Below are positions 10,401 to 33,504 of a stretch of DNA of 64,000 bases, one piece after another; within the stretch, counting starts at the first letter, position 1; every line of letters starts with the position of its first letter. Below the pieces are notes generated by a model. That model saw only the letters and a list, made by a program, of their open reading frames with translations, was not told the DNA's origin and did no database searches. Source of the stretch: a candidate division WWE3 bacterium. GTDB taxonomy: Bacteria > Patescibacteriota > WWE3 > 2-01-FULL-39-13. The position numbers and the translations under genes were made by a program. The stretch is from positions 18,317 to 82,316 of the forward strand of contig JALWZX010000011.1 of assembly GCA_027002375.1 (NCBI GenBank), written 5' to 3'.

Positions 10401-11211
10401 GTACAACTTCATACTCAACTTCTAGCACAGGAGATATATCAATAGTAGAAGAGTGTTCTTTAGAGTAAAAGTTATATTGAACATTGCTAGATGAAAAGGA
10501 ATCTATATACATACCATTATTCTTTATTGTTCCATTTACCAAATCTTGAATTAAATCGGTAACGTCTATCGTTACATCACCATTTATACTAGAAATCATA
10601 GGCGATTGTGCATAAGTCTTGTCACCCATTTGTGGCCTTGTATTCCACGTTACACTTCGCTCGTTCCAATCACCTTCAACACCTTTCACTTTAAACCAAA
10701 TAGAATTTTCATTACTTCTAGCATTAACATGCAATTTTAATTTAGCACTTCTTATAACTTTTCCATTTAATTGGATTAGATCAAACTTTATTAATGGTCG
10801 TTTTATACCTGGCCTAACCGCAACTTCTGTAATATTACCGGCATTGACATCTGGATTCCATCTATCAACAAAAGTGTCTTCTACAGCTCCCAAGTTAACT
10901 CTTGAAACACCCAAAACCTTCGTATCTTTAGATATGCTTGCACTGTTACCTTCTACATTAGCCATTGATAGTTCATGCACATAATCAGGGCATACGCCTT
11001 CAGTAGTAAAGGTAGCATTGTGTACACCACCCTCAAAATCACCATTAACAATTTTACTGGAATCTTCTGACGAGGCTTTTTGTATAAAATTTACACTAAG
11101 AAAAGTAGCACCAACTAATACAAAAGCTAGAATTGCAAGCAAAATTACAACAAGATAATTTTTCCTGAGAATCTTAACACGATAATATAACTTCTTAAAA
11201 GGTCTGGACAT
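4405..11211 (-). CDS. giant (2268 aa) membrane-anchored surface protein with DNRLRE-like module, two glycoside-hydrolase-like TIM-barrel regions and beta-sandwich/CBM-like modules
   Basis: N-terminal TM anchor (LVVILLAILAFVLVGATFL). DNRLRE-like motif (RPLIKFDLIQLNGKVIRSAKLKLHV). Clan GH-A-like signatures (YVEFGSEPEIWW ... IPTEWETSG). A second TIM-like region (GVVYGPGSAGEAKPW...). Several Ig/CBM-like stretches. Confidence 0.7.
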   Translation of the reverse strand: MSRPFKKLYYRVKILRKNYLVVILLAILAFVLVGATFLSVNFIQKASSEDSSKIVNGDFEGGVHNATFTTEGVCPDYVHELSMANVEGNSASISKDTKVLGVSRVNLGAVEDTFVDRWNPDVNAGNITEVAVRPGIKRPLIKFDLIQLNGKVIRSAKLKLHVNARSNENSIWFKVKGVEGDWNERSVTWNTRPQMGDKTYAQSPMISSINGDVTIDVTDLIQDLVNGTIKNNGMYIDSFSSSNVQYNFYSKEHSSTIDISPVLEVEYEVVHDASQNEKNSTPDLSDNVENIPAGGIIPNDSDDMDVKTYKLPEPVRKDTINTSGLMVDRSDIDDAQRWIDRNPGVHIILMNVSWAQTDGDWGRIKNQLNKLRPENKVIIRLMSSGYSDFSKLPNGQQYDAYVPQRIASNPSNMIYVNDDAKCSAWRLNYLSPSTISEMKKWTRSFAKEFKNDDRVIGVVYGPGSAGEAKPWMTTQYGGCSTDAWRDAFMNSSYKYKETKDPRYVYDYIVPVVSEIGEEWKDVSKDISVQTSSGYVFPFMGEAWRKYLAKYRVGIQESGLYPIQTGCLKAFDKRYNRIYMQLQYPKYTPADFDVHMHTMWLEAEALGWGYPSNREYHHFYEPYVSSRALFEWTFRNSVARRNRRIMLWMSNDPNDPVTGSWYKIPQDIIAFGNKYLGIPPKDNDTIWITFKGRPVNDNFYCFDYFNYTYGMKTDLELANRWSPKNSDDLTAWSKDKEFRDLTKSTGEGKNDWRYYSARYIDKNILIDVDDEWVKKLNGKKVLLKMTWLDNDNGTFDIVYAGESGSTKLVTVKKHNTKKWVSGSWIIENPVFNGAIGDSNSNLPDYLKPRWPNGFDIMLKDNSDGRDVISELILTTAGTGVQTFDVGDSAGFETNDTKTEVEKSQVCTVGTVGNKWRRVGPVTVPQGFLVTSVKSATGKKSQKIHAEGAEVGIKYDSDLLLDSNTYSISADVFVERGKLRVFIKDATDDSVVVVQDVSKSENWDNINLVFKAHSGRKYNLYFLSDSNASNDFYIDNVTLMKNVTNDNETDEITGFSGTEISSLEMNVENKYVSAFSRALLGQNLTPKASSVLNENDESLYIAPLKDLKVPLYRYSDKSYVYIPNPDINEWSFASGSDDYIKKYDGSSVEFVRSGRIFQYIDAKKFKKGAKYKVSVVYSVIGDHAMVNNKMRLRGTVVYKDQLRFYIGSTMLFDENVQNVDNTSNHKTKSIYFTYNPLLNKDAGVVRIVIGLTDRNDDNTKLIVDKFSIREVDNNGNSVGQELVDDSDFNRVVFKDGRFPLTSGLLDKYLSLAKSINGDFIFSVQPGATIEPSSCKSGHCNTNADAIRNDVINNPDFDEMIRELFDIIDYSKEVGKPIKYVEFGSEPEIWWTNYDNSYNYGIGHDRVYARYKLYGEMYALFAKRFKQRYSDVELGAYIGYGDSWKYSLNGFWDGFNKVDNGNIAKPDFWTPHSYPLRAWGDGLCRVNDSVDKKACVDNSLANYGKDVYCDRSVNEIVTSDERGKEIVIGNVNVNLSDNVKSKIEKDIESYKFLDAFYECSTQYLNNKGLSNVKYIPTEWETSGSTSVAWGTVSDELFTADMLSRYAKLGVYGATHFSTWGGDSIISGYGNVSPPYLTFKLYDKYISRAPYMLETNNDKEETVSTYAYTDKKNAVYFVIVNRHIRDGYSSVKLNLPGGLNLDKSNVQEYVVGCYEESRGSSCIYDADRSALNGVLVDYRNADNVLNTVAPKTVDLSNDTIKVKNHSWYLLKYTIDNNPPPGNICFSDNSIKFDNINVIQSINPAPSVKVTVSIKTGSDISDGARLKLSRIYVSDGITVEKTIVNNVAVAKNTDYNFADVYNYKDERNTTDEFPLNSKFKYKVVISDDGCSDEATDVINDLNLFDPQGMVVAKNDICTVKGWVRDQDKPAEGVGINIAIDDPSNRIKDMVADDYRSDLEVQFGGKKFAYHGFSVNLDNYINDEVEHKVYIVAKNIEGTGGNDTEIWNSPVAIRCLKPESPRTKKIVMSAKKENFGDVDRLPRISVYNGDTKYTSVYIDKDDFNDYVVEVPVGTDIKDLDFVYDNDDSSEESGLDVNLVIKSIKDNDTNVVYDNLSASYCKYNFFDENFDLHMYCGGDIRVVGDDTQNSRIEYVIARSQVSGIAKSKRAKLSIMLNDRLIGTAFVEDLSNHKYPFRVPLLDGFYPYGDIVFRFDNDFYSSDPSGDLNLVLVSSTNNEKRCDRFILDNTCNKSSDVETYMYCKGNAKVDLNSCVN

Positions 11212-18825: not shown

Positions 18826-21800
18826 TTGAGTATGAACCTGTCCAACATATTTGCAAAAATCAAGAAACGTCTTGCTATTGTCTCGTATTTGCAAAAGTGC
18901 TCTATTTATTTAACAGATATTGCCACCAAATTTTATGCACATTTGTCAAAGCGCTTTTACTGCTATGACAGTGCGAACGCACATATTGCGTTACTCTTAA
19001 GTATCCCTAAACTAATCGAAAAACATCTACAGCGTTCTTTTGCGGTTTTAATAACCCCAGCTAAAACCCTAATGATTTTGCTTCTAATATTATTTTTAGT
19101 GGTCGGTCCATTAACAACAAGCATGTCCTATGCTCAGAAAGAAAACGTGAGAAACAATCAGTCAGTCTACAAGTCTGATACCACTTCTCCTATCAAAAAT
19201 GTGTTACTAGCACTAAAAGACAGTGAAGGCGCCAATAAAGGTGATAAAACAAGTAAAGATATTCAAATTCCCACTACAAAACCACCTTTAGAGCCAGAAA
19301 ATTCAGATAACGTAATTCAAGCAAATAAGCCGATAAAACTTAAAATCAAAGATGAAACCATTAAAGCTAAAAAGTTGAGATACATTGTTGAGCGTGAAAA
19401 AACGCATGAAATGATCGAAGTCACTAGCATAATTGATGATATTAATAACCAGTTGGTATTAAAGCCAAAAAGGGCATTTAGACCGGGAAAATATAAGTTA
19501 CAAGTAGTAGAAAATATAGACGTAGACTCGACCAAAAACGAAAATGTACAAGCAAAGCAGAAAGACGCCAATAACGCACAAACAAAACCAAGCAATAACG
19601 ATCAGTCACCAACAGAACAACCCAATACTGATCGATCGACAACAGACCAAACTGACAACTCGTTAGATGAACAAGTCAACAGTACACAAACAACTGATTC
19701 CCCTTCTCAGCAACCTATATACGAACAAGAATTTTTATGGGGAGTCTTAGCATACAATAGCGACAAGGCACAATACCTATTGTATGAAACCGCTCAATTT
19801 CAAATCGGGGTCCTTGACGAACAAGGAAACATAATTTGCGATGCTGACATCGATTTAACAATCACAAACAAAGATGCAAATCATAAAACCATATTATCAA
19901 CGAAAACAGGCACTATAACTGAAAGCAACGAGTGTATTAAACATGATTTCACTCTAGAACCTGACTACAAGAGCGAATTACAACTCACCCATTCAGGAAA
20001 ATATACGGTAGAAATAACAGCAACAACAAAAAATGGAACATATAAAACAACCGATTCTTTTGAAGTAATAGAACCAGATGATGTTCCGTTTTTAATACAA
20101 AGAAATACGCCAACAAGAGTCTATCCAAAAAAAGATTATCCAGTTGAAATAACAATAATTCCAAATGAAGATTTTAATGGCGAAATTGTTGAAACAGTAC
20201 CAAGAGATTTTCTAATAAAAAGATCATATCTTGGAATTCCATATACAAATATTCAAAAAACGTCAGGAGATAAAAAAATAATATGGAAAATCAAGCTAGA
20301 AAAAGACGTGCCTGTGATTCTCTCTTATAAATACGATGCGCCGAATATATCACCACAATTTTATTTATTAGGTCCGATAGAGTTTGTGAGAACAACTGAA
20401 ACCACTACCCTATCTGATGAACCGAACCAAGATACTGATAATAATCGAAATCTATACAAAGATAATGAGTTAGATAACGCCAAAGATAAAAACAATAACA
20501 AGAACGCCGATAAAAACAACAGTACAAAGAAAAGCGATAATAACCAACAAACCAAGAATAAAAGTCAACAAAATCAAAATCCAAATCAACGAGACCAAAA
20601 TAAAATTAAAAATGTCGAGACTATAAGAAATATTGATATACCCTCGATAGACCTCGAACCAAACAACACCTACGCATCTAAAGTAACGACAAATAAAAAA
20701 GTAATATTTACAGAACAGAGAGAATGGCAGCTTGCCAATGACGCTATCGATGATTATGCAATATACACAGACACAAATGGAACACATGATACTGATAACT
20801 CATCGTACACAGGCGTACCCTTCAACAATCAAGTAGCACAGGGAGGTATCTTTACTCAAAATGCCAACGACATTGATGTAGGTTTAGGTTCTGATGGTCA
20901 CTATTTATTTGGATATGTAATACAGGCTAGAAACGATTCGTATGGCAATCGTATCTCTTATCTGTCTAGGGTCACATTAGACGAAACAGAAAATTTAACA
21001 GGACACGGCCAAGGGTATAGAAGAAACGCAACAAATGACAGATATTACACATACGGATATGGAATTGTAAATGCATCTTCTGGTGATAACATACGTGTAG
21101 AAGTTATTAGACAAGGTGATAATACAGCGTCACACACATTAGAAGCAAACCGATCCTCTTTTTGGTTAGTTAAATTAGACGACGATTGGGCATATTTAAA
21201 GTTACAAGGCCAAGACAATCAATCAACCTCGACTTCCCTGCAAGATATTAACTTTACCACATCGATAGAAAATACAGATACGGATACTTTTGGACACAGT
21301 ACGTCGACAAACTCAAATCAAATTACATTGAAATCATCAGGTCATTACTTGGTCACATACTCTGTAGGTGTTGACGGCGCTACAAGCAGAACTTCTGTAA
21401 CAACAAATTTAGCACTGAACGGTACAGCAATACCACAATCATATGATTACTCATACATACGATCGTTAAACTCTACAACACATGGTACTGCAACAAACAT
21501 GTCGATCATAAACGCATCTGCAAACGACGTTCTAACTTTAAAATGGGGCGCTACTGGTGCACACAGTTCATATGGAACTCAAACAAGATCAGACCGAACG
21601 TTTATTGCAGTTGTTAAATTGCCTGACGATGGCGATTATTTAATGGCACATGACACAAGTGGGACTCAAAACGTAGGCGGGTTAAACAATACGCTAACAT
21701 TCGACACATCAGACGAGGCAGATTCAACTTCTTTTTCATTTAGCACATCAACAGGTACAGCTACAATACAACAAGATGACACCTATTTATTTATGAGTGG

Positions 21801-24800
21801 TGCAAGAAGTAACAGAACAACAGGTACAGCCCGTCTAACAAGTGCGGGTTTATTTTACGTAAATGGGACACAACAAAGTGTTGGAAACACAGGTGTATAT
21901 GTCAGAGGTGATCAAGGTACACCAGACACATTTGATGGAGGCTGGACTGGTGCTGGCATTTTTGACCTGTCACAAAACGATCAAGTAACATTTAGACAAG
22001 TTGATGAAGGTGATAACGGTGGTGACGATAAGTTTGTAGCAAATGCACTCGGTTTAACCGCAATAAACCTAGATACAATCTTAATTCCAGTAACAAACGA
22101 TAGCCCTAATGCACCACAAACACCTTATGTAAATAATGATACAGCTCAGAGTGGGCAAGCTTCCCCTGTTTCTAACTTAACTGATATAACACCTGCGTTT
22201 TCTGCAATTTATGATGATAATGACGCATCTGATACCGCCCCTTTTTACCAAATTCAAGTAGGTGACGATACAGATTGGTCAGATGCACCAGAACTTTGGG
22301 ACAGTAACAAATCTTCTCTAACAACAGCCGTAAACGAAAATTCAAGATCTGAAGATATTATATATAATGGAACAGCTCTAACTGCAGGCTCAACATATTA
22401 CTGGCGAATAAAGTTTTGGGACAATAACGGTGCAGAAGGTGCGTGGTCAGCTACACAGCAATTTAGCATGGCAACAAATAACGATCCAAACGCACCACAA
22501 ACACCTTATGCAAATAACGATACTGCGCAATCCGGTCAGGTATCACCTGTTTATAATTTAACAGATACTACACCGGCCTTCTCTGCGATTTATGATGATG
22601 ATGATACTACAGACAAGGCTTCATATTATCAGTTACAAGTAGGTGACGATACAGATTGGTCAGATGCACCAGAGCTTTGGGACAGCACCAAGACGGCATT
22701 CACAACATCATTAGATGAAAATTCTAGGTCAGACGATATAATTTACGGTGGCTCTGCACTAACACTTGGCTCAACATATTACTGGCGAATAAAGTTTTGG
22801 GACAACAGAGGTGGTGAAGGCGCGTGGTCAGCTACACAACAATTTTCTCTAGCAAGTTCAGTCGGTAATGATGGCGACGTGGCAATTTATCAAGATACAA
22901 ATGGAACACATAATACCAATAATACATCATATACTGGCGTTCCGTTTAATAATGTTGTAACGCAAGACCCAACTTTTTCTCAAAACGCAAATGATATTGA
23001 CGTAAAACTTGTAAATGGTGGACACTATCTAGTTGGTTACAAAGTAGAAGCTCAAAACACATCTTACGGAAACAGAATTGGCTATCTGTCAAGATTATTG
23101 CTAAATAGTACAGAAGAATTATCGGCACATGGGCAGGGTTATAGAAGAGATGCAACGAACAACCGTTACTACGCTTACGGTTATGGTATTATAAGTGCAA
23201 ACGCGAGTAATAATATTAGGGTTGAAGTAATTAGAAACGGTACTAATTCTGCAGAACACGATCTCATTGCAAATAAATCTAGTTTCTGGTTAGCTAAACT
23301 AACAGATTCTTGGGCGTATTTAAGATTACAAGGTCAGGATAATCAAACGACATCGACTTCCCTACAAGATATAAACTTCACAACTTCTATAGAAAATAGT
23401 GATACGAATACATTCGGTCATAGTACATCAACTAACTCAAATCAAATTACTCTAAAACAAGCAGGCCATTATTTAGTTACGTACAATGTCGGTATAGACA
23501 GTACAACAGATAGAACATCTATTACGACAAACCTTGCTCTAAATGGGACTGCGATACCGCAATCATATGGTTACGCTTACGCTAGAGGTTTAAACGGTGC
23601 AACAGATGCAACAGCATCAAACATAACAATAATAAATGCATCCGTAAACGATATTTTAACATTAGAATGGGGCGCAACAGGCGCATATGCAACAAATGGA
23701 TCTCAAACAAGATCAGACAGAACTAGTATTCAAATTGTAAAGCTACCAGACACAGGTGATTATTTGCGAATTCACGAAAATACAGATGGTCAAGATATCG
23801 GTGGTCTAAATAACACAATAACATTTGATACATCAGATGAGGCAGATGCTAACTCTTTCACCTACTCTACCTCAACAAGCCAAACAACAATAAATAAAGG
23901 TGCTTTTTACATTTTTACATCAGGCGCACGGACACATAGAACAACTGGTGGCACAAGGTTAACCTCTAAAGGCGCATTTTTTATAGATGGCACTCAATCA
24001 GACTTAGCTAATACAGGTACTTATATTAGAGGTGTCCAATCACCAAATAATACACTAGATGGTGGTTGGTCAGCCGGCGGAATTCTATCGTTATCAAAAA
24101 ATAACGTTGTTGATTTTAGACAAATAGACGAAGGTGGCAACGGAGACGATGATAAGTTTGTCGCAAATTCATACGGAATAACAGCAGTAAACCTAAATTC
24201 TTTCTATACAATCTCAATATCAGGAACGTGCCAACAATACGATGAATCTACCAATTGTGCAAATGGTGAAACAGTAAAAGTAGCAGTAGACGGCCAACTA
24301 CAATCGCAAACCACAACAACATCATCGGGCACCTTCACAATTTCGGGTATTCCTAAACCAGCGAAAAATTCAGTAATAACCGTATTTCTCGACAATGTTA
24401 GTGATTCGAATGAGGCTGTAACAATAACTAAATACGCTGGCTCAGGTGATATATCAAATCTAAAACTATACGAAGAACATCTTACTTTAGGAAACGAGTC
24501 AAACACATCACCAATATCGAATTCTGATGTTGCCAAATACGACAACTCTGTCTCATCAGATGAAGATATATTTTTCGACGTAGACTCTAGTAATAACTTA
24601 ACGGTCGACTATACAGCACAATCAACACAAGAAAAATTATATGTACTAGCTAACAACACTTTCAGGCCAGATGACACAAATGCAACAACTGTTACTACAG
24701 AAAAAGTAAAAGTAGACGGGGGGCTAACGCTAGATCAAACAACATTCAAGATAACTGGATCTGGTACTGGTTCAAGTGTACCAATAACTTTTGGCTCAAA

Positions 24801-27051
24801 CGGGATTCTAACTGCGAATTCCCCATCAACAGTAGAATTTAGTGGCACATCAGCGACAGAAATTCCGGCATTAACCTATTACAACTTAAAACTAGCACCA
24901 TCAAGTGGCTCACCCACCCACACGCTTGGCACTGCCACATCGCAAACTATAGATATAAACGGCTCTCTAACGATAGGCGATTCTACAAATACAGTAACGG
25001 CAGATCTTGGCACATACTCACCCGCAATAAATATCAATAAAAGTTTAATAGTTAATTCTAACGCCACCATGTCAGGTTCATACTCAAACACTATTAAAAC
25101 CGCAGGTTCGGTAACCGGTGGTGGCGTGATTAACATCTCAGGCACAGGTTCGTTTGAAAATAACGCTTCTGCAAATGTTTCTTTTGGATCTTCAACGGGT
25201 TCTAATAACTGGTCGTTCAGCAATTTAGCTTTCACGAATTCTGTATTCACACCTGTAACAATAACGTTAAATTCGGGTGGTACAGGTACGATTCAGGTAA
25301 CCAATACTCTAACAATCGGCAATTCTGCAGATACAGAGACAACCATTTTAGATAACGAAACAAATGATCGTAACTTAGATTTAGTCGATTTAACAATTAC
25401 TGATAAGGGGGAATTTAAGGCATCTTCGACTTCCACACAAAAAATTGCACAAAACTTTACAAATAATGGTACGTTTACGCCAAACAATTCAACCATAGAG
25501 TTTGATGATTCAACTAAGACTTCCAAATTATTATATTCTAGTAACACAACATTCTATAATCTAACCGTAAATACAGATAATAAACAAATACAATTCGACG
25601 AAACTGAACAAACAAATATAACAGGAACATTAACATTGCAAGGTTCAGCCTGCGGAACTAGCAGAGTACTAGTAGATTCTACAACAGACAACGACCAATT
25701 TGATATAAACGCAACAGGATCAACAACAACAGAATATGTTGATATAGAAGATTCAAATGCAGTAACAGCGCTAACAGCACGAAACGCAACTGAAGATAAT
25801 GGCGGTAACACTAACTGGACAATAATCGCAGGATCTTGTGGTTCAAACACCCCACCAAATGACCCGACATCTTTAACACAGGCTAAAACAGACGATACAG
25901 TTTTAAACACAGGTGACTATACAAACGAAACTTCAATAAAATTTTCTGCATCGGCAAGTGATACTGACAACCCTGATGGCTTAAAATTGTGTGTAGAAAT
26001 ACAACCAGTTGGCACAGCGTTTACAGGCACATCTACACAATGTTCAGACGAACAAACATATACTGGTTCAGCTCTCACATTAACTACAACGATATCTGGT
26101 TTAGATGCAGACGAATCTTATCATTGGCAAGCAAAAATCACAGATACAGCAAATTCTGATTCTAACTGGGTTTCATATGGGGGAAATCTAGAGACGGCTC
26201 GCGATGTAGGCATAGACACAACAGCACCAACCGTTGCAACTATATACGATGGCGATGTTAACGGTGTTGATAAAGAGATTAGCTCGAGCTCCCTATCAGA
26301 ATTATCTGCAAATTGGGATAACTTTGATGCAACAGTATCCGGCATCAAAGAATATGAATATTCAATTGGTCTAACTCAGGGTGGCACAGAAATTCTAGGT
26401 TGGACATCAAATGGAACAAGCACATCAGTAACGGCAACGGGTTTAACATTGCAAACTTCAAAAGTATATTATTTCAATGTAAGAGCAACTGATAATGCAA
26501 GTAATATCTCTAATGTTGCATCATCAGATGGGCAGATTGTAGCACCAAGTTTGCAGTTTTCTGTAACACCACCGACAGTAGAATTCTCTAACTTAAATGC
26601 ATTGAATGGATATTCAGCAGAACAAACTGCAACATTAACTACATCAACTAATGCTTACAATGGGTACGAGATTCGGGCATTTTTGGCTAACTTGCTGACA
26701 TCCAGCGACGGCGTAAACACAATCCAAAACTTTGACGGTGGCACCTACTCTGCCCCTGCTTCATGGGATTCTTCAGATAGAGGTTTCGGATACACATCTA
26801 GCGACACTTCAATACAAGGTGTAGATAAATTTAATTCGTCAACATGTGCAGGGGGCGGAGCCGCTCCTTGTTATGCACCATTTGCAACATCATCACCTGG
26901 CGACATAGTCGCAGATCACGAATCCACAGTAAGCGGCTCCGCGATATCAAATGAGCAATTCAACGTAACTTACAAAGTACAAACTGACTCAACGCAACCT
27001 GCATCTAAATATTCGACAACAGTTATATACGCAATTACAGCTAAATATTAA
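18826..27051 (+). CDS. giant (2741 aa) secreted adhesin-like protein with rhamnosidase-N-type FN3 tandem domains, duplicated ~440-aa lectin-like module, FN3 domains and C-terminal WxL-like (YxL) anchoring domain
   Basis: Signal/TM segment (LMILLLILFLVVGPLTTSMSYAQ). The true start may be the internal Met at 19072. Two FN3-like units with the GH78-N signature (...STYYWRIKFWDN.G.EGAWS). Large internal duplication. C-terminal FN3s (YHWQAKITD, YYFNVRATD). Final ~170 aa are homologous to the C-terminus of ORF 28362-29477. Confidence 0.75.
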   Translation: MSMNLSNIFAKIKKRLAIVSYLQKCSIYLTDIATKFYAHLSKRFYCYDSANAHIALLLSIPKLIEKHLQRSFAVLITPAKTLMILLLILFLVVGPLTTSMSYAQKENVRNNQSVYKSDTTSPIKNVLLALKDSEGANKGDKTSKDIQIPTTKPPLEPENSDNVIQANKPIKLKIKDETIKAKKLRYIVEREKTHEMIEVTSIIDDINNQLVLKPKRAFRPGKYKLQVVENIDVDSTKNENVQAKQKDANNAQTKPSNNDQSPTEQPNTDRSTTDQTDNSLDEQVNSTQTTDSPSQQPIYEQEFLWGVLAYNSDKAQYLLYETAQFQIGVLDEQGNIICDADIDLTITNKDANHKTILSTKTGTITESNECIKHDFTLEPDYKSELQLTHSGKYTVEITATTKNGTYKTTDSFEVIEPDDVPFLIQRNTPTRVYPKKDYPVEITIIPNEDFNGEIVETVPRDFLIKRSYLGIPYTNIQKTSGDKKIIWKIKLEKDVPVILSYKYDAPNISPQFYLLGPIEFVRTTETTTLSDEPNQDTDNNRNLYKDNELDNAKDKNNNKNADKNNSTKKSDNNQQTKNKSQQNQNPNQRDQNKIKNVETIRNIDIPSIDLEPNNTYASKVTTNKKVIFTEQREWQLANDAIDDYAIYTDTNGTHDTDNSSYTGVPFNNQVAQGGIFTQNANDIDVGLGSDGHYLFGYVIQARNDSYGNRISYLSRVTLDETENLTGHGQGYRRNATNDRYYTYGYGIVNASSGDNIRVEVIRQGDNTASHTLEANRSSFWLVKLDDDWAYLKLQGQDNQSTSTSLQDINFTTSIENTDTDTFGHSTSTNSNQITLKSSGHYLVTYSVGVDGATSRTSVTTNLALNGTAIPQSYDYSYIRSLNSTTHGTATNMSIINASANDVLTLKWGATGAHSSYGTQTRSDRTFIAVVKLPDDGDYLMAHDTSGTQNVGGLNNTLTFDTSDEADSTSFSFSTSTGTATIQQDDTYLFMSGARSNRTTGTARLTSAGLFYVNGTQQSVGNTGVYVRGDQGTPDTFDGGWTGAGIFDLSQNDQVTFRQVDEGDNGGDDKFVANALGLTAINLDTILIPVTNDSPNAPQTPYVNNDTAQSGQASPVSNLTDITPAFSAIYDDNDASDTAPFYQIQVGDDTDWSDAPELWDSNKSSLTTAVNENSRSEDIIYNGTALTAGSTYYWRIKFWDNNGAEGAWSATQQFSMATNNDPNAPQTPYANNDTAQSGQVSPVYNLTDTTPAFSAIYDDDDTTDKASYYQLQVGDDTDWSDAPELWDSTKTAFTTSLDENSRSDDIIYGGSALTLGSTYYWRIKFWDNRGGEGAWSATQQFSLASSVGNDGDVAIYQDTNGTHNTNNTSYTGVPFNNVVTQDPTFSQNANDIDVKLVNGGHYLVGYKVEAQNTSYGNRIGYLSRLLLNSTEELSAHGQGYRRDATNNRYYAYGYGIISANASNNIRVEVIRNGTNSAEHDLIANKSSFWLAKLTDSWAYLRLQGQDNQTTSTSLQDINFTTSIENSDTNTFGHSTSTNSNQITLKQAGHYLVTYNVGIDSTTDRTSITTNLALNGTAIPQSYGYAYARGLNGATDATASNITIINASVNDILTLEWGATGAYATNGSQTRSDRTSIQIVKLPDTGDYLRIHENTDGQDIGGLNNTITFDTSDEADANSFTYSTSTSQTTINKGAFYIFTSGARTHRTTGGTRLTSKGAFFIDGTQSDLANTGTYIRGVQSPNNTLDGGWSAGGILSLSKNNVVDFRQIDEGGNGDDDKFVANSYGITAVNLNSFYTISISGTCQQYDESTNCANGETVKVAVDGQLQSQTTTTSSGTFTISGIPKPAKNSVITVFLDNVSDSNEAVTITKYAGSGDISNLKLYEEHLTLGNESNTSPISNSDVAKYDNSVSSDEDIFFDVDSSNNLTVDYTAQSTQEKLYVLANNTFRPDDTNATTVTTEKVKVDGGLTLDQTTFKITGSGTGSSVPITFGSNGILTANSPSTVEFSGTSATEIPALTYYNLKLAPSSGSPTHTLGTATSQTIDINGSLTIGDSTNTVTADLGTYSPAININKSLIVNSNATMSGSYSNTIKTAGSVTGGGVINISGTGSFENNASANVSFGSSTGSNNWSFSNLAFTNSVFTPVTITLNSGGTGTIQVTNTLTIGNSADTETTILDNETNDRNLDLVDLTITDKGEFKASSTSTQKIAQNFTNNGTFTPNNSTIEFDDSTKTSKLLYSSNTTFYNLTVNTDNKQIQFDETEQTNITGTLTLQGSACGTSRVLVDSTTDNDQFDINATGSTTTEYVDIEDSNAVTALTARNATEDNGGNTNWTIIAGSCGSNTPPNDPTSLTQAKTDDTVLNTGDYTNETSIKFSASASDTDNPDGLKLCVEIQPVGTAFTGTSTQCSDEQTYTGSALTLTTTISGLDADESYHWQAKITDTANSDSNWVSYGGNLETARDVGIDTTAPTVATIYDGDVNGVDKEISSSSLSELSANWDNFDATVSGIKEYEYSIGLTQGGTEILGWTSNGTSTSVTATGLTLQTSKVYYFNVRATDNASNISNVASSDGQIVAPSLQFSVTPPTVEFSNLNALNGYSAEQTATLTTSTNAYNGYEIRAFLANLLTSSDGVNTIQNFDGGTYSAPASWDSSDRGFGYTSSDTSIQGVDKFNSSTCAGGGAAPCYAPFATSSPGDIVADHESTVSGSAISNEQFNVTYKVQTDSTQPASKYSTTVIYAITAKY
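20750..22080 (+). repeat. intragenic duplication unit A1 (~443 aa lectin-like triple module) of giant adhesin gene
   Basis: Protein segment IYTDTNGTHDTDNSSYTGVPFNN...KFVANALGLTAINLD is ~70% identical to A2. Confidence 0.8.
22095..22478 (+). repeat. intragenic tandem repeat b1 (128-aa rhamnosidase-N-type FN3 unit)
   Basis: NDSPNAPQTPYVNNDTAQSGQ...STYYWRIKFWDNNGAEGAWSATQQFSMA. ~85% identical to b2 at the DNA level. Confidence 0.8.
22479..22862 (+). repeat. intragenic tandem repeat b2 (128-aa FN3 unit)
   Basis: NDPNAPQTPYANNDTAQSGQ...STYYWRIKFWDNRGGEGAWSATQQFSLA. Confidence 0.8.
22875..24205 (+). repeat. intragenic duplication unit A2
   Basis: IYQDTNGTHNTNNTSYTGVPFNN...KFVANSYGITAVNLN. Collinear with A1. 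Confidence 0.8.
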
Positions 27052-27164
27052 TTATGTGGAATTCAAGCAAAACCTTAAAACAAAAGAAAAATCTAGAAGC
27101 ACAACCACACAAGCGTCGAAAAGTTACCGAGTCTACCAAGTTCAAAAGCGAAACACCACGGACT

Positions 27165-27257
27165 AAAGCCCGTAGTTTCTTATCGCCAATTACCATATTA
27201 ACTAACCCTATCCACACACTAAAGTGTATGAATTTAAGTTTGGTGACAATAAGGCTA
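27165..27257 (+). repeat. MITE-like interspersed repeat, copy 1 (hairpin + TTATCGCCAAT ... AAGTTTGGTGACAATAA)
   Basis: Shares the ~90-bp consensus ...TTTCTTATCGCTAATTATTATATTGACTAACTCCATCCACACATTAAAGTGCGTATTTTTAAGTTTGGCGATAATAAA with 5 other loci. Confidence 0.6.
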
Positions 27258-28352
27258 GCACTAATATTGGCTGTTCTTACTTTACTAATTTTATTGTTTC
27301 CGTTAAAAACACAGGCAAAAGATTTGATAATTAAGAATCAACTAGAAAGCGAAAATGCATACATACAAGATAATACACAAAATACACAACAACCTGTGTT
27401 TAGAAAGCCAACAATTGATTCCCACAATGATTTCACAGACAAAACCCTTTCTAACCCACAAGTTAAAGGAAAAGCAGTTTTATCAACAATAGCGATTGGC
27501 GTATCGCCTGCCATAGCTGAACTTCCCGTAGACCCTGTGAAAACTAAAGTTGCGAAAGTATATGTTTTTAACAATACCAATGTGCCACTACCAATACATG
27601 CTTTTTCTGATAATTTTTCTGTAAACGAAATTGTAATAGACAGTACAAAAGACAATTCAAACACTTTCGATGCTTCAAATTGGATAACAATAGACCCACC
27701 TGACTTTATACTTCAACCAAACGAAGAAAAAGAGGTCTATATCTCAATTTCGCCTACACCAAATGCAGAACCAGGTGGGCATTATGCCACCGTTTACTTT
27801 AGACCCTTAATCTCAGAAGAATATATAACCCCAGATAAAACCTACTTAACTGCACAAATTGGTGTATTATTGTTCTTAACTGTTTCAGGAAAAATCAAAG
27901 AATCTGCAAATATTTCTAACTTAACTTTACCTAAATACCCTACGCCAGATAACTTTTTACCAACAGTTTACATACAAAACAACGGAAACATACATATAAT
28001 TCCCAAAGGTAAAATAACAATCAAGGGCTTGTTTAGAAAAACAACACATGAATTCCCAATAGAAAATTCAATAGTTCTACCAAATACAGAAAAAAAGGTG
28101 GTTTCGCATACCAAGGCTTCATTAAAGACGGGACTATATCGAACATATTTTACAGGCAATTATGGTAGCAACAACAAGCCACTGGCCAGTAGCGACAAGA
28201 TATTCTTCGTATTCCCAAACCACAAGACACTTATTACTATATTTATTCTAATAATAGTTACACTTTTAGTTCAAAAGTTTCATAGAAACATACCATTGGC
28301 TATAAAAGTCTTGTTTGGTAAAATTGATGAATACAAAAGTGGCAGGAACTAA
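27228..28352 (+). CDS. CscA/DUF916-like cell-surface protein (signal peptide + C-terminal TM anchor), paralog 1
   Basis: Signal peptide MNLSLVTIRLALILAVLTLLILLFPLKTQA. Conserved core with paralog 29827-30915 (PTPNAEPGGHYATVYF vs PPTNAEPGGHFGSIVF). C-terminal TM LITIFILIIVTLLV plus basic tail. The ORF-track start at 27054 is extended through a repeat element and is probably artefactual. Confidence 0.55.
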   Translation: MNLSLVTIRLALILAVLTLLILLFPLKTQAKDLIIKNQLESENAYIQDNTQNTQQPVFRKPTIDSHNDFTDKTLSNPQVKGKAVLSTIAIGVSPAIAELPVDPVKTKVAKVYVFNNTNVPLPIHAFSDNFSVNEIVIDSTKDNSNTFDASNWITIDPPDFILQPNEEKEVYISISPTPNAEPGGHYATVYFRPLISEEYITPDKTYLTAQIGVLLFLTVSGKIKESANISNLTLPKYPTPDNFLPTVYIQNNGNIHIIPKGKITIKGLFRKTTHEFPIENSIVLPNTEKKVVSHTKASLKTGLYRTYFTGNYGSNNKPLASSDKIFFVFPNHKTLITIFILIIVTLLVQKFHRNIPLAIKVLFGKIDEYKSGRN

Positions 28353-28361
28353 TTTTGGTTA

Positions 28362-29477
28362 TTGCCACTTTTGTGTTTTTTAGTAATCAAAAAGGAGGTG
28401 ACTAGTACACAAATGAAAAACAAAAAATTATTTAAAGTTTTTTCTATGTTATCAGTTACTGCGCTCACGCTTTCACAGGTGGCACTTTCCCTGTCTATGC
28501 CAACTGCTCAAGCAGCATCACTGTCTGACGGCTCTGTTTCGCTTAGCGATTCACGACCCAGTCAAACCAATGTTACCTATACATCTTCATTTCAAAATGT
28601 TTCGGCAACATCAATTCAATGTATAGAATTAAACTTTAACACTGTAGCAAGTGGCACAGGTTCAGTACCAACAGGAATGTCTACTACTAGTGCGACATTA
28701 AATAGTTCATCAACATACATAACTCCAGCCAACTGGACTGTTGATGCAACAACCAATGGTACTGTTAAACTAACCTACGCAACTGGCGAAAGTGGAACAG
28801 ACGGTAATATCATATTAGATGGAATCACAAATGGTTCAACGGTAGACACAGGGTATTTCTTGCGATTTACAACATATAGTGATTCTAGCTGTACTACAGC
28901 TGTAGACAACGCAACTATAATGTTCATCTATACTAACGGGCAACTCGTTTCGTTAACGGTAGACCCAACATTGAGCTTTAGCGTTGCTTCAGTAGCCTCA
29001 GGTCAAACAGTCAACGGTGCAACAACAAATGTTGCTACATCAACAACAACAATACCTTTTGGAACAGTAACAACAAGTACAGATGTAGTCGCCGCACACG
29101 ATTTAACCGTCACAACAAATGCAACCAATGGTTATACCTTATATACAAGATATACGGGACAATTAACCAATGGATCAGGTGCAACAATTGATGATGTATC
29201 AGGTACAAACGCAACACCAGCATCTTTTGATACGGGCGAAGCCTTTGGTTATACTACAAACGATGCAACATTAAGTAGTGCACCAGTAGACAGATTTACA
29301 TCTAGCGGTGGTAATAAATGGGCTTCTTTCACAACATCAAATGCAGAAGTCGCATACGCCGATTCAGCAGTAGATACAGACACAACAAGAGTTGGTTACC
29401 AAGTAGGCATAGCCGGAACAACAGAAGCTGGAACCTACACAACAACTGTTGTATATACTGCAACACCTACCTATTAA
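28362..29477 (+). CDS. secreted protein with C-terminal WxL-like (YxL variant) domain
   Basis: Signal peptide ending AQA. C-terminal ~170 aa (LSFSV...IPFGTV...HDLTVTTNATNGYTLY...GTYTTTVVYTATPTY) are collinear with the C-terminus of the 2741-aa protein. The layout matches the WxL domain with Trp replaced by Tyr. Confidence 0.55.
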   Translation: MPLLCFLVIKKEVTSTQMKNKKLFKVFSMLSVTALTLSQVALSLSMPTAQAASLSDGSVSLSDSRPSQTNVTYTSSFQNVSATSIQCIELNFNTVASGTGSVPTGMSTTSATLNSSSTYITPANWTVDATTNGTVKLTYATGESGTDGNIILDGITNGSTVDTGYFLRFTTYSDSSCTTAVDNATIMFIYTNGQLVSLTVDPTLSFSVASVASGQTVNGATTNVATSTTTIPFGTVTTSTDVVAAHDLTVTTNATNGYTLYTRYTGQLTNGSGATIDDVSGTNATPASFDTGEAFGYTTNDATLSSAPVDRFTSSGGNKWASFTTSNAEVAYADSAVDTDTTRVGYQVGIAGTTEAGTYTTTVVYTATPTY

Positions 29478-29526
29478 AAATAATGTAAATGTAGAAAATC
29501 CTTATCTTGAATTAAAGATAAAAAAT

Positions 29527-29560
29527 AGAAGCCCCGGGCATACGCCCGGGGCTTCTTAGA
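29527..29560 (+). terminator. rho-independent terminator (GAAGCCCCGGGC-atac-GCCCGGGGCTTC + T-rich tail)
   Basis: Perfect 12-bp GC-rich stem 50 nt after the stop of ORF 28362-29477. Confidence 0.7.
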
Positions 29561-29826
29561 TAAAACATTCATCATTACCAAATTAAACACCTCCATTCCA
29601 AAACGAAATTCTATGATTCTTCTCGCTCATATCCTTCAACACGAAATACCAGCACCACTTTCAGACCCACCCTCTAAAACGAAGTGCCCCACCACCACTC
29701 GACATCAATTTCAAAACGAGACGTTTTTCACATTTACTTCTCTTTTTCCTACCCTATTGCTACAAAATTTAATTTGTGTAAAATCAAATTACAGTAAAAA
29801 ATATAAATCAAATTATAAATAACCAA

Positions 29827-30915
29827 ATGGCATACAAAACAGTTCCTACCCCAAAGATTAAAACATTTAGTAAGTTAACATTAACTTTAGTACTTTCTAT
29901 TACTATACTTTTGGCGTTAAGTTCCCATTCATTAGCACAAGAAGACACCAACACTCAAGAGCACAAACCAACGCCAGAGCTTATAAACGAAAAGCCATCT
30001 ACCAAAAATGACACAAACACTAACCAAAATAACAATCAAAAAACAGATACTCCTACGGAAGATACGGTCACAGACTCTACCACCATAGCCGTATCGCCAC
30101 CAACATTCGAGTTGGTAACAAACCCAGGCACACAAATCAAAAACACAATAAAAGTTAGTAACCCATCAGACAAGCCTATACATGTAACAACAGACATCAG
30201 AAACTTTGTGGCAGTCGGTGAAGAAGGCGCGGTAAACTTGACAGATGAAGACACAACTTATTCCCTAGCAAAATGGATAACAATAGCACCAACAAATGCA
30301 ACAATAAAACCAAAATCAACAGAAATTTTCACGTTCATAATCAACCCCCCTACGAATGCAGAACCAGGTGGCCATTTTGGCTCAATAGTATTTAGAACTG
30401 GGGGAAATCAAATCAATGAAACTGGTGCCTCAGTTGCACAAGAAGTTGCATCATTAATATTACTAAAGATAGCAGGACCTACTACAGAAAAAGCAACTCT
30501 AGAAGAATTCAAAACAACAGACTCAGTATACCAATCGATACCAATAACCTTTGAATATAAGGTAAGAAACGAAGGTAACGTTCACATTAAACCAACAGGA
30601 AAAATAACCATAACTAACATATTTGGCAAAGAAGTTGATTCATTTGCAGTTCCACCAAAAAATGTATTACCAAGTGCAACTAGAAAAACAGACGTAAATT
30701 ACGATAAAAAAGATTTGTTTGGTAAATACAATGCTACACTGGTATTAACCTATGGTGCAAACAATGAAACATTAGTTTCAAACACAATCTTTACAGTAAT
30801 TCCTGTTAAAAAGGTTGCTGTAGCACTTATAATAACTGCAATAGTCTTGTTCTTACTACTAAAAGGCCGTAAAAGAATATCGATGTCTCTAAAAGTACTA
30901 TTTGGAAAACAATAG
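29827..30915 (+). CDS. CscA/DUF916-like cell-surface protein (signal peptide + C-terminal TM anchor), paralog 2
   Basis: Signal peptide ...SSHSLAQ. Core shared with 27228-28352. C-terminal TM VAVALIITAIVLFLLL plus KGRKR. Confidence 0.55.
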   Translation: MAYKTVPTPKIKTFSKLTLTLVLSITILLALSSHSLAQEDTNTQEHKPTPELINEKPSTKNDTNTNQNNNQKTDTPTEDTVTDSTTIAVSPPTFELVTNPGTQIKNTIKVSNPSDKPIHVTTDIRNFVAVGEEGAVNLTDEDTTYSLAKWITIAPTNATIKPKSTEIFTFIINPPTNAEPGGHFGSIVFRTGGNQINETGASVAQEVASLILLKIAGPTTEKATLEEFKTTDSVYQSIPITFEYKVRNEGNVHIKPTGKITITNIFGKEVDSFAVPPKNVLPSATRKTDVNYDKKDLFGKYNATLVLTYGANNETLVSNTIFTVIPVKKVAVALIITAIVLFLLLKGRKRISMSLKVLFGKQ

Positions 30916-32239
30916 TGAAATGACCCATAAAGAACTCTATGAAATTCGCCGGGTTAAGGCCTGTGGCTTCTCATCGCTAATTATTATGTTGACCAACTCT
31001 ATCCAAGCACTAAAGTACGTGGTTTTAAGTTTGTCGATAATAAACACATTTTTATTATCTGTATTATTCACTACATCATTTTTGCTAACTTTATTTAGCA
31101 CTTTAATCACGATTTCTCCCACATCTATACACGCCCAAACACCAATAACAGTTTCATTAGACATATCAGACACAATATTAAGAATTCAAGGCTATGCGAG
31201 TCCGTATGCAAACATAACATTTATAGAAAATGAAGCAGTTATAGGCACTACTCAGGCAAATGTTTATGGGGAATTCAACAAAAATATTACATACGAAAGT
31301 GAAGGTATACACACTGTTTCATTTTATTCTACAGATCAAAACTCAAGCACATCGAGTACAATTACAATAACAGTTGCTGTATACACGCATGCCGTTACAA
31401 CCATTGAAGACATATTAATTCCACCAACGATAGATATAGATAACCCTATTCATACAACTAATTCAGAAGAAATTATCACTTTTAGTGGTCAAGCGACACC
31501 AAATACAACAATAACATTAATATCTGGGGGGCTATCGAAACAAACACAAACTCTAGTAACAGGCAACTGGAAAATTACATTTACAGGTGATCAGTTCACA
31601 ATCGGAACTCACACAGCAATTACCAAAACACAAAAGTTAAATGGCACATTAAGCGAAAATTCAAAAACTATTACTTTCAAGATTAACGAATACATCCCAC
31701 CTGAACCTGAACCAACACCTATACCTACCCCAGAAGAAACTACAGAAACATCAAAAAGCAAAAGTGATGAGACTAAGGGAAATGACGACGAAGACAAAAA
31801 AGAAGACAATACTGAGAACAAAGATACAAATATAGTTAGCAAAATCATAACTAAGATAAATGAAATAATTAACGGTAATGGCAATTCTGAGATTGAATAT
31901 TCATGCAATCTACACCCTTACTTAAAAAACTTTGACTATAATGGAAATTGTTTCATACCACATCGAACAGAAGAATTCGTAAACACTGTAACATACTGGA
32001 CTAAAAACTGGCGTGAAACAACAACCGCCATAAAGGGCTTCTTCGCAAACATTAATGCAGGTGAAAATTTAGACAACCTATCACCAAACGAAAAGCAAAA
32101 ATTAGAAAAAGAGATTAAACGATGTGACCTTGACAACGACAATTTATGCACACTTAAAGACTTTTCGATACTATTATATTATACTAATAACATCGAAGTT
32201 ACAGTTCAAACTGACAAAAGTCAGGATATAAGAAATTAG
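30902..32239 (+). CDS. surface protein with Ig-like N-terminal region, P/T/E/D-rich linker and C-terminal Cys-containing domain
   Basis: Hydrophobic leader. The start may be the internal Met near 30986; the 5' end lies inside a repeat element. Ig-like TIDIDNPIHTTNSEEIITFSGQATPNTTITLISGG. Linker PEPEPTPIPTPEETTE. Four-Cys C-terminal domain. Confidence 0.5.
   Translation: MENNSEMTHKELYEIRRVKACGFSSLIIMLTNSIQALKYVVLSLSIINTFLLSVLFTTSFLLTLFSTLITISPTSIHAQTPITVSLDISDTILRIQGYASPYANITFIENEAVIGTTQANVYGEFNKNITYESEGIHTVSFYSTDQNSSTSSTITITVAVYTHAVTTIEDILIPPTIDIDNPIHTTNSEEIITFSGQATPNTTITLISGGLSKQTQTLVTGNWKITFTGDQFTIGTHTAITKTQKLNGTLSENSKTITFKINEYIPPEPEPTPIPTPEETTETSKSKSDETKGNDDEDKKEDNTENKDTNIVSKIITKINEIINGNGNSEIEYSCNLHPYLKNFDYNGNCFIPHRTEEFVNTVTYWTKNWRETTTAIKGFFANINAGENLDNLSPNEKQKLEKEIKRCDLDNDNLCTLKDFSILLYYTNNIEVTVQTDKSQDIRN
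30947..31047 (+). repeat. MITE-like interspersed repeat, copy 2
   Basis: GGCTTCTCATCGCTAATTATTATGTTGACCAACTCTATCCAAGCACTAAAGTACGTGGTTTTAAGTTTGTCGATAATAAA. Confidence 0.6.
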
Positions 32240-32364: not shown

Positions 32365-33504
32365 ATGAAAATACATGGTTTATCTTTAGCATTAAAAATA
32401 GCAATAATACTGATCGGCTCATGGCTCTTAATACATGGTTTAGCTTCTTTGGGAACCTTTTTAGCGCTAGCCTACCCAATCTGGTGGATACTAGCTCCAA
32501 AAAAAACGTATTGCATAGCATGTCGTGCGCAAAAAGAATCTGGCTACTGTAGCTTTTGCGAAGAACCAATAAAACCACGCCAACTATATCCAAAGAACTT
32601 AAGATCTGCCATATTGAATGCAATAACGATACTATTTCTTTCTTTATTTTCTATATTTGTCGTTTATATAGAATCACAAATAATTCAAAAAGTAATAAAT
32701 ATTAACACAGAAAAAACTGTAACATTCTCAATTAATGACAAAGGCCAATATAAAATGGGTGAGATATTTTCTATGGATATAGAGATAAGCGGTGTTCAAA
32801 AACCAGTAAACGCAATACGTGCAGACGTACAATTTGATCCAAAAAGACTAGAAGTAGTAAACATATCAACAGAAAATTCGTTCGCAGATATATTCATACA
32901 AAAAGAATATGACAATGAAAAAGGGTTCGCACGGTTAACTGGTGGTCTACCTAACCCAGGCTACAATGGCAACAAAGGTCTATTCGGTACTATCTACTTT
33001 AAATCTAAAAAAGCGGGTTTAACAGAGGTAAAATTTTTACCGACATCATTAGTCCTAGCAAACGATGGTCATGGTACAAACATATTAAAAGCACCGGAAT
33101 CAGCATTGTTTTTAATACTGCCCGAAACGATTTCCGCATACGAATCAAAGAAACAAGAAGTTATATTAAAACCATTAGTATTGGGAACTCAAACCGATAA
33201 GACAAAAGATCAACTACATCTTTACGATACTAAAACACACGATATCTCATCATCAGTCTTGGGAATGCAAGTAGAGCAACTAGACGAAAACGCTAAAAAC
33301 ACAGATCAAACCTCAGGCACACAAAATCAACAGGCAAATCAAAGTGAAAAGAATACCTATAAAAAAACTACGCGAACAAAGACAAAACAATTAGCACAGG
33401 TCACGCAAGACAATCAAACAGAAGAACAAAATATATTACAAAAAATACTAACCTACCTACATAAAATCGATATTTTTATATTAAGTATCTGGCAAATATT
33501 TTAG
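32365..33504 (+). CDS. membrane protein with zinc-ribbon (CxxC...CxxC) loop and cohesin-like domain
   Basis: Two N-terminal TMs flank CIACRAQ...CSFCEE. Cohesin-like beta-sandwich motif (VNAIRADVQFDPKRLEVVNIST...GLFGTIYFKSKKAGLTEVKF). Q/T/N-rich tail. Confidence 0.5.
   Translation: MKIHGLSLALKIAIILIGSWLLIHGLASLGTFLALAYPIWWILAPKKTYCIACRAQKESGYCSFCEEPIKPRQLYPKNLRSAILNAITILFLSLFSIFVVYIESQIIQKVININTEKTVTFSINDKGQYKMGEIFSMDIEISGVQKPVNAIRADVQFDPKRLEVVNISTENSFADIFIQKEYDNEKGFARLTGGLPNPGYNGNKGLFGTIYFKSKKAGLTEVKFLPTSLVLANDGHGTNILKAPESALFLILPETISAYESKKQEVILKPLVLGTQTDKTKDQLHLYDTKTHDISSSVLGMQVEQLDENAKNTDQTSGTQNQQANQSEKNTYKKTTRTKTKQLAQVTQDNQTEEQNILQKILTYLHKIDIFILSIWQIF

Follow-up and report, generated by a model that had tools for sequence, protein, structure and literature searches.

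A probable Pam-type pilus operon with a giant putative tip adhesin in a WWE3-like bacterium of the candidate phyla radiation

Introduction

The ultrasmall bacteria of the candidate phyla radiation (CPR; Patescibacteria) live attached to other cells, and to our knowledge the organelles of this attachment are mostly unknown. In this study, we ask what is built by six consecutive genes for surface proteins in a stretch of 64,000 nucleotides (nt), hereafter the window, from a candidate division WWE3 bacterium (GenBank assembly GCA_027002375.1, contig JALWZX010000011.1, positions 18,317 to 82,316). A first-pass annotation of the window had taken five of these genes for a cell-surface complex of the WxL/Csc type. 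Our results make it quite probable that these genes of a WWE3-like CPR bacterium form a pilus operon of the Pam type, and the pilus is most likely of the thin adhesive kind.

Two known systems frame the question. The Pam pilus has been known only since 2026, from a single species in culture (10.64898/2026.03.03.709456). In the fibres of the CPR bacterium Ca. Mycosynbacter amalyticus, cryo-electron microscopy (cryo-EM) identified the pilins PamA and PamB (bioRxiv 10.64898/2026.03.03.709456), which consist of two beta domains and a linker; the fibre grows by donor-strand exchange, as the linker of one pilin enters the next. PamC and PamD, the PapD/FimC-like chaperones of this exchange, which have a C-terminal transmembrane (TM) helix, are encoded in the operon of these pilins together with a small tip protein, PamT, and a TM-anchored terminator, PamR (10.64898/2026.03.03.709456). 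In WxL clusters, on the other hand, a small and a large WxL protein are accompanied by a WxL-interacting protein (WxLIP), which comprises DUF916, DUF3324 and a TM segment (PMC1534035, PMC10599100; PDB 9i1y, 9i25). AlphaFold2 (AF2) predicts that a hairpin strand of the WxLIP inserts into the WxL domain and completes its sandwich (PMC10599100), which is mechanistically the job of a pilus chaperone.

Results

The five co-oriented open reading frames (ORFs) of the first-pass annotation were borne out (18826-27051, 27054/27228-28352, 28362-29477, 29827-30915 and 30902-32239). A sixth co-oriented gene (32365-33504), which codes for TM segments and a Cohesin domain, is syntenic in seven related loci and is part of the locus. 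The features to which we refer below are as follows, with lengths in amino acids (aa).

18826..27051, + strand: giant surface protein, proposed tip adhesin (ORF of 2741 aa)
26506..27048, + strand: pilin-type C-terminal domain of the giant protein (residues 2561-2741)
27228..28352 (ORF opens at 27054), + strand: putative chaperone/anchor A, paralogue of 29827-30915
28413..29477, + strand: putative major pilin, precursor of 354 aa (ribosome-binding site AAGGAGGTG, AF2 model, NF058581)
28938..28964, + strand: pilin linker GQLVSLTVD, presumptive donor strand (conservation, AF2; donor role by comparison with PamA/PamB)
29527..29556, + strand: GC-rich hairpin of 13 bp (z -6.7 against shuffles)
29827..30915, + strand: putative chaperone/anchor B, 362 aa (PF06030, AF2 model, hhalign to WxLIPs)
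30920..32239 (alternative start 31019), + strand: secreted Big_6/dockerin-like protein of 439 aa, proposed base adaptor (Big_6, alignment)
32365..33504, + strand: membrane cohesin protein of 379 aa, proposed anchor of the dockerin protein (PF00963)

The giant protein and the small protein do share a C-terminal domain (CTD), as first described (BLASTP, 31% identity, E 8e-5), and its size is about 180 aa. This domain had been read as WxL. We found that it matches the C-terminal domain of CPR Pam pilins, a pilin module being the very outcome that the first-pass annotation had named as contrary to its own reading. The small protein covers the whole 148-position NCBIfam profile NF058581, 'CPR_Pam_pilin_C' (E 1.7e-7, 31 bits), and 60 of its 64 homologues are matched by the same profile (best E 3.6e-13). 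A hidden Markov model (HMM) of the last ~180 residues of these 64 homologues matches residues 2561-2741 of the giant (E 3e-12), with no hit to any further ORF of the window. The HMM of the window CTD also finds both pilins of a related locus, L023 (E 8e-12 and 6e-15), which score 122 and 119 bits against NF058581, over its cut-off of 55 bits; a beta-propeller protein of 1933 aa in L023 has an NF058581 domain at its end (113.7 bits). These profile matches make the domain a member of the Pam pilin CTD family at superfamily level, below NCBI's curated threshold. The pilin-domain family comprises 2051 clusters at 50% identity (E up to 1e-3). Among the 150 matches listed, nearly all domains end a few residues from the C-terminus of the protein, and some sit in proteins of 2600-3300 aa.

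The small protein consists of a signal peptide, an N-terminal beta-sandwich, a linker and the Pam-type CTD, in which the C-terminal Tyr is invariant. Its AF2 model, with a predicted local distance difference test (pLDDT) score of 93.9, contains two beta domains, with strands within residues 5-137 and 153-318. The sole unstructured, lower-confidence stretch of the model is the interdomain segment IYTNGQLVSLTVDPT (138-152; pLDDT 68 in the block 141-150). Few parts of the family are better conserved than this linker, with G142 invariant and Q143, V145, V149 and D150 conserved in at least 90%. [quoted passage not shown] The small-protein ORF (28362-29477) codes for 371 aa; its most likely start is the ATG at 28413, which follows AAGGAGGTG, and this revises the product to 354 aa. 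One database copy has 343 aa, which would imply the ATG at 28446 instead.

The CTD of the giant extends to its last residue (…ITAKY), and the linker part SLTVD is absent upstream of it under either alignment. A giant without SLTVD would accept a strand and not donate one, which suggests a tip position like that of FimH or PapG. The giant is unlike PamT in size, and the PamT profile NF058579 matches neither its full length nor its C-terminal 218 aa. Residues 70-103 of the giant form a hydrophobic, signal-like segment, and Pfam finds in it two Ig_Rha78A_N domains together with weak BclA_C-like matches; its true start is uncertain. Two repeats are visible in its gene. The first is an internal duplication with a period of 708 aa (20758-22081 against 22882-24205, 71-77% nt identity), with weak BclA_C-like matches, and the second is a tandem pair of Ig_Rha78A_N-like domains of ~127 aa (22092-22391 against 22473-22772).

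The two proteins encoded after the subunit genes are paralogous to each other (32% identical across 292 aa, E 4e-34), and each has an N-terminal hydrophobic signal-like segment, a single C-terminal TM segment and a basic tail, all as noted in the first pass. In chaperone A (27228-28352), a signal-like segment precedes two Ig-like domains, residues 383-411 make up the TM segment, and the basic tail reads …KVLFGK; the protein matches the HMM of the chaperone family with an E value of 2e-84. Chaperone B (29827-30915) contains a signal peptide, a low-complexity spacer, a DUF916-like Ig domain, a second Ig domain, a TM helix and the tail …KVLFGKQ. In its AF2 model (pLDDT 87.9), two Ig-like domains are followed by a terminal helix (248-279), which is the build of a PapD/FimC-like chaperone with a C-terminal TM helix, as in PamC and PamD.

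The proposal that these anchors contain DUF916 was borne out, and a DUF3324 domain was not detected by sequence. PF06030 (DUF916, now WxLIP_PGBD) matches 29827-30915 with 27.6 bits (cut-off 27.3) and is found in 60 of the 67 members of the chaperone family (best 4.6e-9), and PF11797 (DUF3324) matches none of these 67. Real WxL clusters were reached by searching an E. faecium WxLIP3 peptide (supplementary table of PMC10599100) against plasmid records. From the annotated clusters of Enterococcus, Melissococcus and Latilactobacillus, we aligned 7 WxLIPs and, separately, 11 small WxL proteins. The CPR anchors align to the 7 WxLIPs with an hhalign probability of 97.2% (E 3e-11, 248 columns). The DUF916 domain carries this signal (95.3% and E 2e-8 when taken alone), and the second domain, aligned alone, gave no significant match to WxLIPs. 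The anchor model also shows two-domain structural similarity to 9i1y. The anchors are relatives of the DUF916/WxLIP (CscA-type) proteins. Given this homology, and since our literature search found no paper linking WxL with chaperone-usher systems or pili, we regard the relation between the chaperones and WxLIPs as a new and solid observation.

Of note, the cytoplasmic tail of both chaperones (28280-28352 and 30860-30915) is conserved across the CPR family as R.RxxLAxKVLFGK, and this conservation suggests contact with a cytoplasmic factor. The tail of WxLIPs is a basic RKKK only.

The WxL part of the first-pass reading did not survive. PF13731, the Pfam WxL family, matches none of the 64 pilin homologues, even at E up to 1, and detects true WxL proteins used as positive controls at 4.5e-75 and 1.4e-47. 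With full-length, trimmed or diversified profiles, hhalign assigned the pilin CTD and WxL a probability of 0.2-1%. The CTDs of the pilin and the giant contain no W-x-L motif, and the solved WxL chain 9i25_A is not among the structural matches listed. The best hhalign score between the pilin CTD and WxL (17.5, E 0.05) exceeds those of all 60 column shuffles, yet it lies within the range of unrelated pairs of beta domains. A permissive hhalign comparison places three conserved blocks in collinear order (…FG…; …TNA..GYT… / …D.RGT..GW.L…; …Y.TTVIYT… / …Y.TTLTW.L…), which we treat as a lead and not as evidence. The pilin CTD and WxL domains may still be homologous. The locus has a TM-ended anchor, and a small and a large protein that share a CTD, as WxL clusters do. 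No sortase-type motif (LPXTG, CscD) occurs near the C-terminus of any protein of the locus, which fails the definition of a WxL cluster because it has neither WxL domains nor an LPXTG protein. Altogether, the Csc/WxL identification was right about the gene grammar and the homologous DUF916/WxLIP anchor, and wrong about the subunit domain, which has no detectable WxL similarity, and about a glycosidase context.

The gene grammar recurs in relatives, and at least seven other CPR genomes contain the operon. A scan of one genome per species yielded 14 related loci. In seven of them (L010-L015 and L017), the six genes keep the order giant, chaperone, pilin, chaperone, Big_6 protein, cohesin protein, and in 12 the large upstream protein has a pilin domain at its end. 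The same parts appear in variant arrangements in L016 and L018-L023, among them the following.

L016, L021 and L023: two pilin genes first, with a chaperone gene next
L016 and L021: additionally a third domain-bearing protein; L016 also has a second chaperone
L023: additionally a giant of 1933 aa

The nearest named relatives of the locus are metagenome-assembled genomes of WWE3, Woesebacteria and Saccharibacteria. Two loci of the set come from contigs of metagenome-assembled genomes titled 'Gammaproteobacteria' and 'Pseudomonadales' (L013, CAYTYZ010000004.1, and L014, CAZSVV010000013.1, respectively). The operon in both is of the CPR type, at 51-53% identity in the pilin, and their titles probably reflect mislabelling or mis-binning. 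In L013, a single stop-to-stop ORF (9098-11059) holds both chaperone A and the pilin.

The fifth protein, described at first as Ig-like, indeed gives a Big_6 match (28.4 bits). Its gene probably starts at 30920 or 31019. The protein comprises a signal/anchor segment, two Big_6 domains, a Pro/Thr/acidic linker and a C-terminal dockerin-like module (…FDYNGNC…, CDLDNDNLCTLKDFSILLYY). Big_6 was found in all 10 family members and EF-hand in 3 of the 10, and in the alignment the family ends in a two-loop DxNxDxxxxxxD…FSILLYY module. Dockerin_1 was detected in 2 of 10 syntenic homologues and PF00404 in 4 of 10 database homologues; the window protein itself has no Pfam dockerin match. It has no C-terminal TM segment and does not show the PamR plan of two FnIII-like domains, an extra N-terminal strand and a C-terminal TM helix. 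We also considered a free donor strand at its mature N-terminus (the conserved …ITVSLDIS…, which resembles VSLTVD of the pilin linker), and downgraded it because this segment coincides with Big_6 positions 1-11.

The sixth protein begins with a TM hairpin and a K/R-rich CxxC…CxxC loop, followed by a third TM segment, a Cohesin domain (residues 120-224) and a low-complexity tail. PF00963 matches it with 34.3 bits (cut-off 24.1) and is present in all eight family members. According to the positive-inside rule, the cohesin domain would lie outside the cell. The loop between the TM segments contains a zinc-ribbon-like motif, CxxC-x10-CxxC (32515-32568, residues ~51-68). L010 and L015 retain this motif, and one CxxC is left of it in L014 and L017.

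In L019 (12086-13480) and L020 (11947-13377), the homologue of the fifth protein ends in a TM helix of its own, without a dockerin-like module, and no homologue of the sixth gene was detected in either locus. This complementary pattern suggests that the fifth protein is tethered to the membrane either directly or through a dockerin-cohesin pair. Such tethering would correspond to that by the TM helix in PamR. Epibiotic growth of Southlakia epibionticum requires SEML1_0315, an envelope protein with a dockerin domain (PMC10633639).

The hairpin lies 50 nt 3' of the pilin stop codon, within a spacer of 349 nt, and L010 has a similar hairpin in the same position. Possibly, it attenuates transcription or stabilises the mRNA and in this way increases the fraction of transcripts that codes for the pilin, in analogy to the pap operon.

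A direct repeat of 103 nt, 73% identical, occurs at 27150-27252 and 30941-31043. Its first copy runs from past the stop codon of the giant into the start of chaperone A, and its second from past the stop codon of chaperone B into the start of the fifth gene. The repeat is in frame with both downstream ORFs, and the relatives lack a corresponding N-terminal extension. A coding explanation was rejected, as the mismatches are spread evenly across codon positions (8, 10, 10), and so was an RNA structure, for which RNAalifold gave no convincing fold.

The several predicted glycosidases said to adjoin the locus turned out to be genes of other kinds, namely a DeoC-type aldolase, a ROK kinase, RmuC, and an RND pump with its HlyD-type partner. 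The sole glycosidase signal is a GH42-like match in the flanks (20.1 bits, below the 21-bit cut-off), and we rejected a glycan-utilisation context. Among 26 window proteins, Pfam gave no match to an outer-membrane usher family. Elsewhere in the window, large secreted-looking proteins with CBM96 (and CBM60 or DUF4215) are encoded at 4405-11211 (- strand) and 42090-44144 (- strand), neither with the pilin CTD, and the product of 52886-55048 (- strand) resembles the coupling proteins VirD4 and TrwB of type IV secretion (T4SS-DNA_transf, E 9e-11).

Discussion

At this locus, subunits that belong to the pilin-domain family are encoded beside proteins with the chaperone fold and homology to WxLIPs, in an order conserved among relatives. 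From this we infer that the small protein polymerises, that the giant takes the tip position and that the fifth and sixth genes serve the base. The first-pass annotation had considered the system unreported, but a 2026 preprint describes it under the name of Pam pilus, though this preprint mentions neither WxL nor DUF916 and claims no homologues outside CPR (10.64898/2026.03.03.709456).

The process that we propose is the following. The six products would be exported or inserted via Sec. The two-Ig proteins (27228-28352 and 29827-30915) would stand on the outer face of the cytoplasmic membrane and act in a PapD/FimC-like manner, each lending a subunit a beta-strand that caps its incomplete Ig-like domain at the C-terminus. 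As in donor-strand exchange, the linker GQLVSLTVD of a pilin might then displace the chaperone strand in the CTD of the preceding subunit. The result would be a thin fibre, assembled with no usher and no outer membrane. The giant, with its acceptor domain and incomplete linker, would be confined to the distal end, as a tip adhesin with ~2500 residues of binding modules. At the other end, the Big_6/dockerin-like protein and the membrane cohesin protein would probably tether the fibre base to the membrane.

Several points weigh against this proposal. The NF058581 scores of the pilin (31 bits) and of the giant CTD (20 bits, E 5e-4) are under the 55-bit cut-off, and with these direct scores Pam membership depends on intermediate sequences. 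The segment …ITVSLDIS… of the fifth protein is probably just the first strand of Big_6, which would leave this protein with no free donor strand. Moreover, the Pam system is documented so far by a single preprint (10.64898/2026.03.03.709456).

An alternative that we consider unlikely is a static, non-filamentous complex of the WxL/Csc kind, in which the anchor would stay bound to the CTDs of the giant and the small protein and keep both at the cell surface as a fixed platform, as proposed for WxLIP and WxL proteins of Firmicutes. The homology of the anchors to WxLIPs fits such a complex, as does the shared grammar of a large, a small and a TM-anchored partner, and for WxL clusters a complex of WxLIP and WxL, with the WxL sandwich completed by a strand of the WxLIP, is both predicted by AF2 and found in PDB 9i25. 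However, the subunit domain lacks the WxL signature and matches the pilin domain of the Pam system, relatives of which build the fibres that cryo-EM has shown, and the highly conserved inter-domain linker would have no role in a 1:1 complex. In addition, one chaperone gene per subunit type, placed after each subunit gene, and a strong hairpin after the small-subunit gene suit an excess of a polymerising subunit. A cellulosome-like glycan-utilisation complex, in which cohesin-dockerin contacts and Ig modules would assemble surface enzymes on the giant as scaffold or carbohydrate-binding protein, is very improbable: the Cohesin of gene 6, the dockerin-like module of gene 5, the two Ig_Rha78A_N domains of the giant and the CBM96 proteins elsewhere in the window speak for it, but no catalytic glycoside hydrolase domain was found in the six locus proteins, the flanks add just the one sub-threshold GH42-like match, cohesin and dockerin are single, and the chaperone and pilin parts would be left unexplained.

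The locus brings out three points: a widespread variant operon with a giant adhesin fused to a pilin acceptor domain, a possible new route of pilus anchoring through a cohesin-dockerin pair, and the relation of Pam chaperones to WxL-interacting proteins, whose mechanism is still debated. The WWE3-type variant may tether its fibre by a dockerin-cohesin plug and not by a TM helix. More tentatively, and with somewhat less than even confidence, we suggest that the Pam pili of CPR and the WxL/Csc clusters of Firmicutes are two branches of an old, usher-less, chaperone-assisted donor-strand system of single-membrane bacteria. Were they one system, the claim of the Pam preprint that there are no relatives outside CPR would need revising. 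For both fields, a hypothesis follows, namely that the WxLIP may be a membrane-tethered subunit chaperone and that complementation or exchange of strands may assemble WxL proteins. Homology of the subunit domains as well would mean that enterococci, listeriae and lactobacilli put their WxL complexes together in this way, and these complexes might form short fibres.

Compared with known systems, the locus is closest in its parts to the Pam pilus. The two share a CPR host, a pilin with beta-sandwich, linker and open C-terminal Ig-like domain (NF058581), two PapD-like chaperones with a C-terminal TM helix, the absence of an usher, and a single operon in which every part has a signal sequence. On the other hand, the relation is distant (31 bits on NF058581, against a cut-off of 55), and the window locus has one pilin gene and not three. 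Its tip candidate is a multidomain adhesin of 2741 aa fused to an acceptor domain, whereas PamT is small and single-domain, and Big_6/dockerin-like and membrane cohesin proteins stand in the place of a PamR-type protein with its own TM segment. Unlike in the Pam pilus, no ATP synthase genes occur among the flanking genes of the window that were scanned.

With the WxL/Csc clusters of Lactobacillales and Bacillales, the locus shares a homologous anchor with C-terminal TM segment and basic tail, a domain of ~165-180 aa at the extreme C-terminus that is common to a small protein and to a large one whose binding modules are N-terminal, and a partner strand predicted to complete the subunit sandwich. 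It differs in a subunit domain without WxL similarity or Trp-x-Leu motifs, in a DUF3324 undetected by sequence, in the lack of an LPXTG protein and in an organism far outside Firmicutes. Moreover, WxL proteins are believed to form a static platform bound to peptidoglycan, with no polymerisation.

Like the subunits of chaperone-usher pili (Pap, Fim, CFA/I, Csu), those of the locus would have an incomplete Ig-like domain at the C-terminus with a conserved terminal aromatic residue, and a tip adhesin in two parts, a binding region and a pilin domain, comparable to FimH and PapG. Unlike in those pili, an usher and an outer membrane are absent here, the chaperones are tethered to the membrane and have no Pfam PapD match, and the proposed donor strand is an inter-domain linker and not an N-terminal extension. 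Finally, cellulosome anchoring resembles the locus in that a cohesin on a membrane protein is encoded beside a secreted protein with a terminal two-loop DxNxDxxxxxxD dockerin-like module. The locus is distinct in having a single pair, no attached enzymes and a polytopic cohesin carrier with a CxxC…CxxC loop, and here the pair would serve to tether the base of a pilus.

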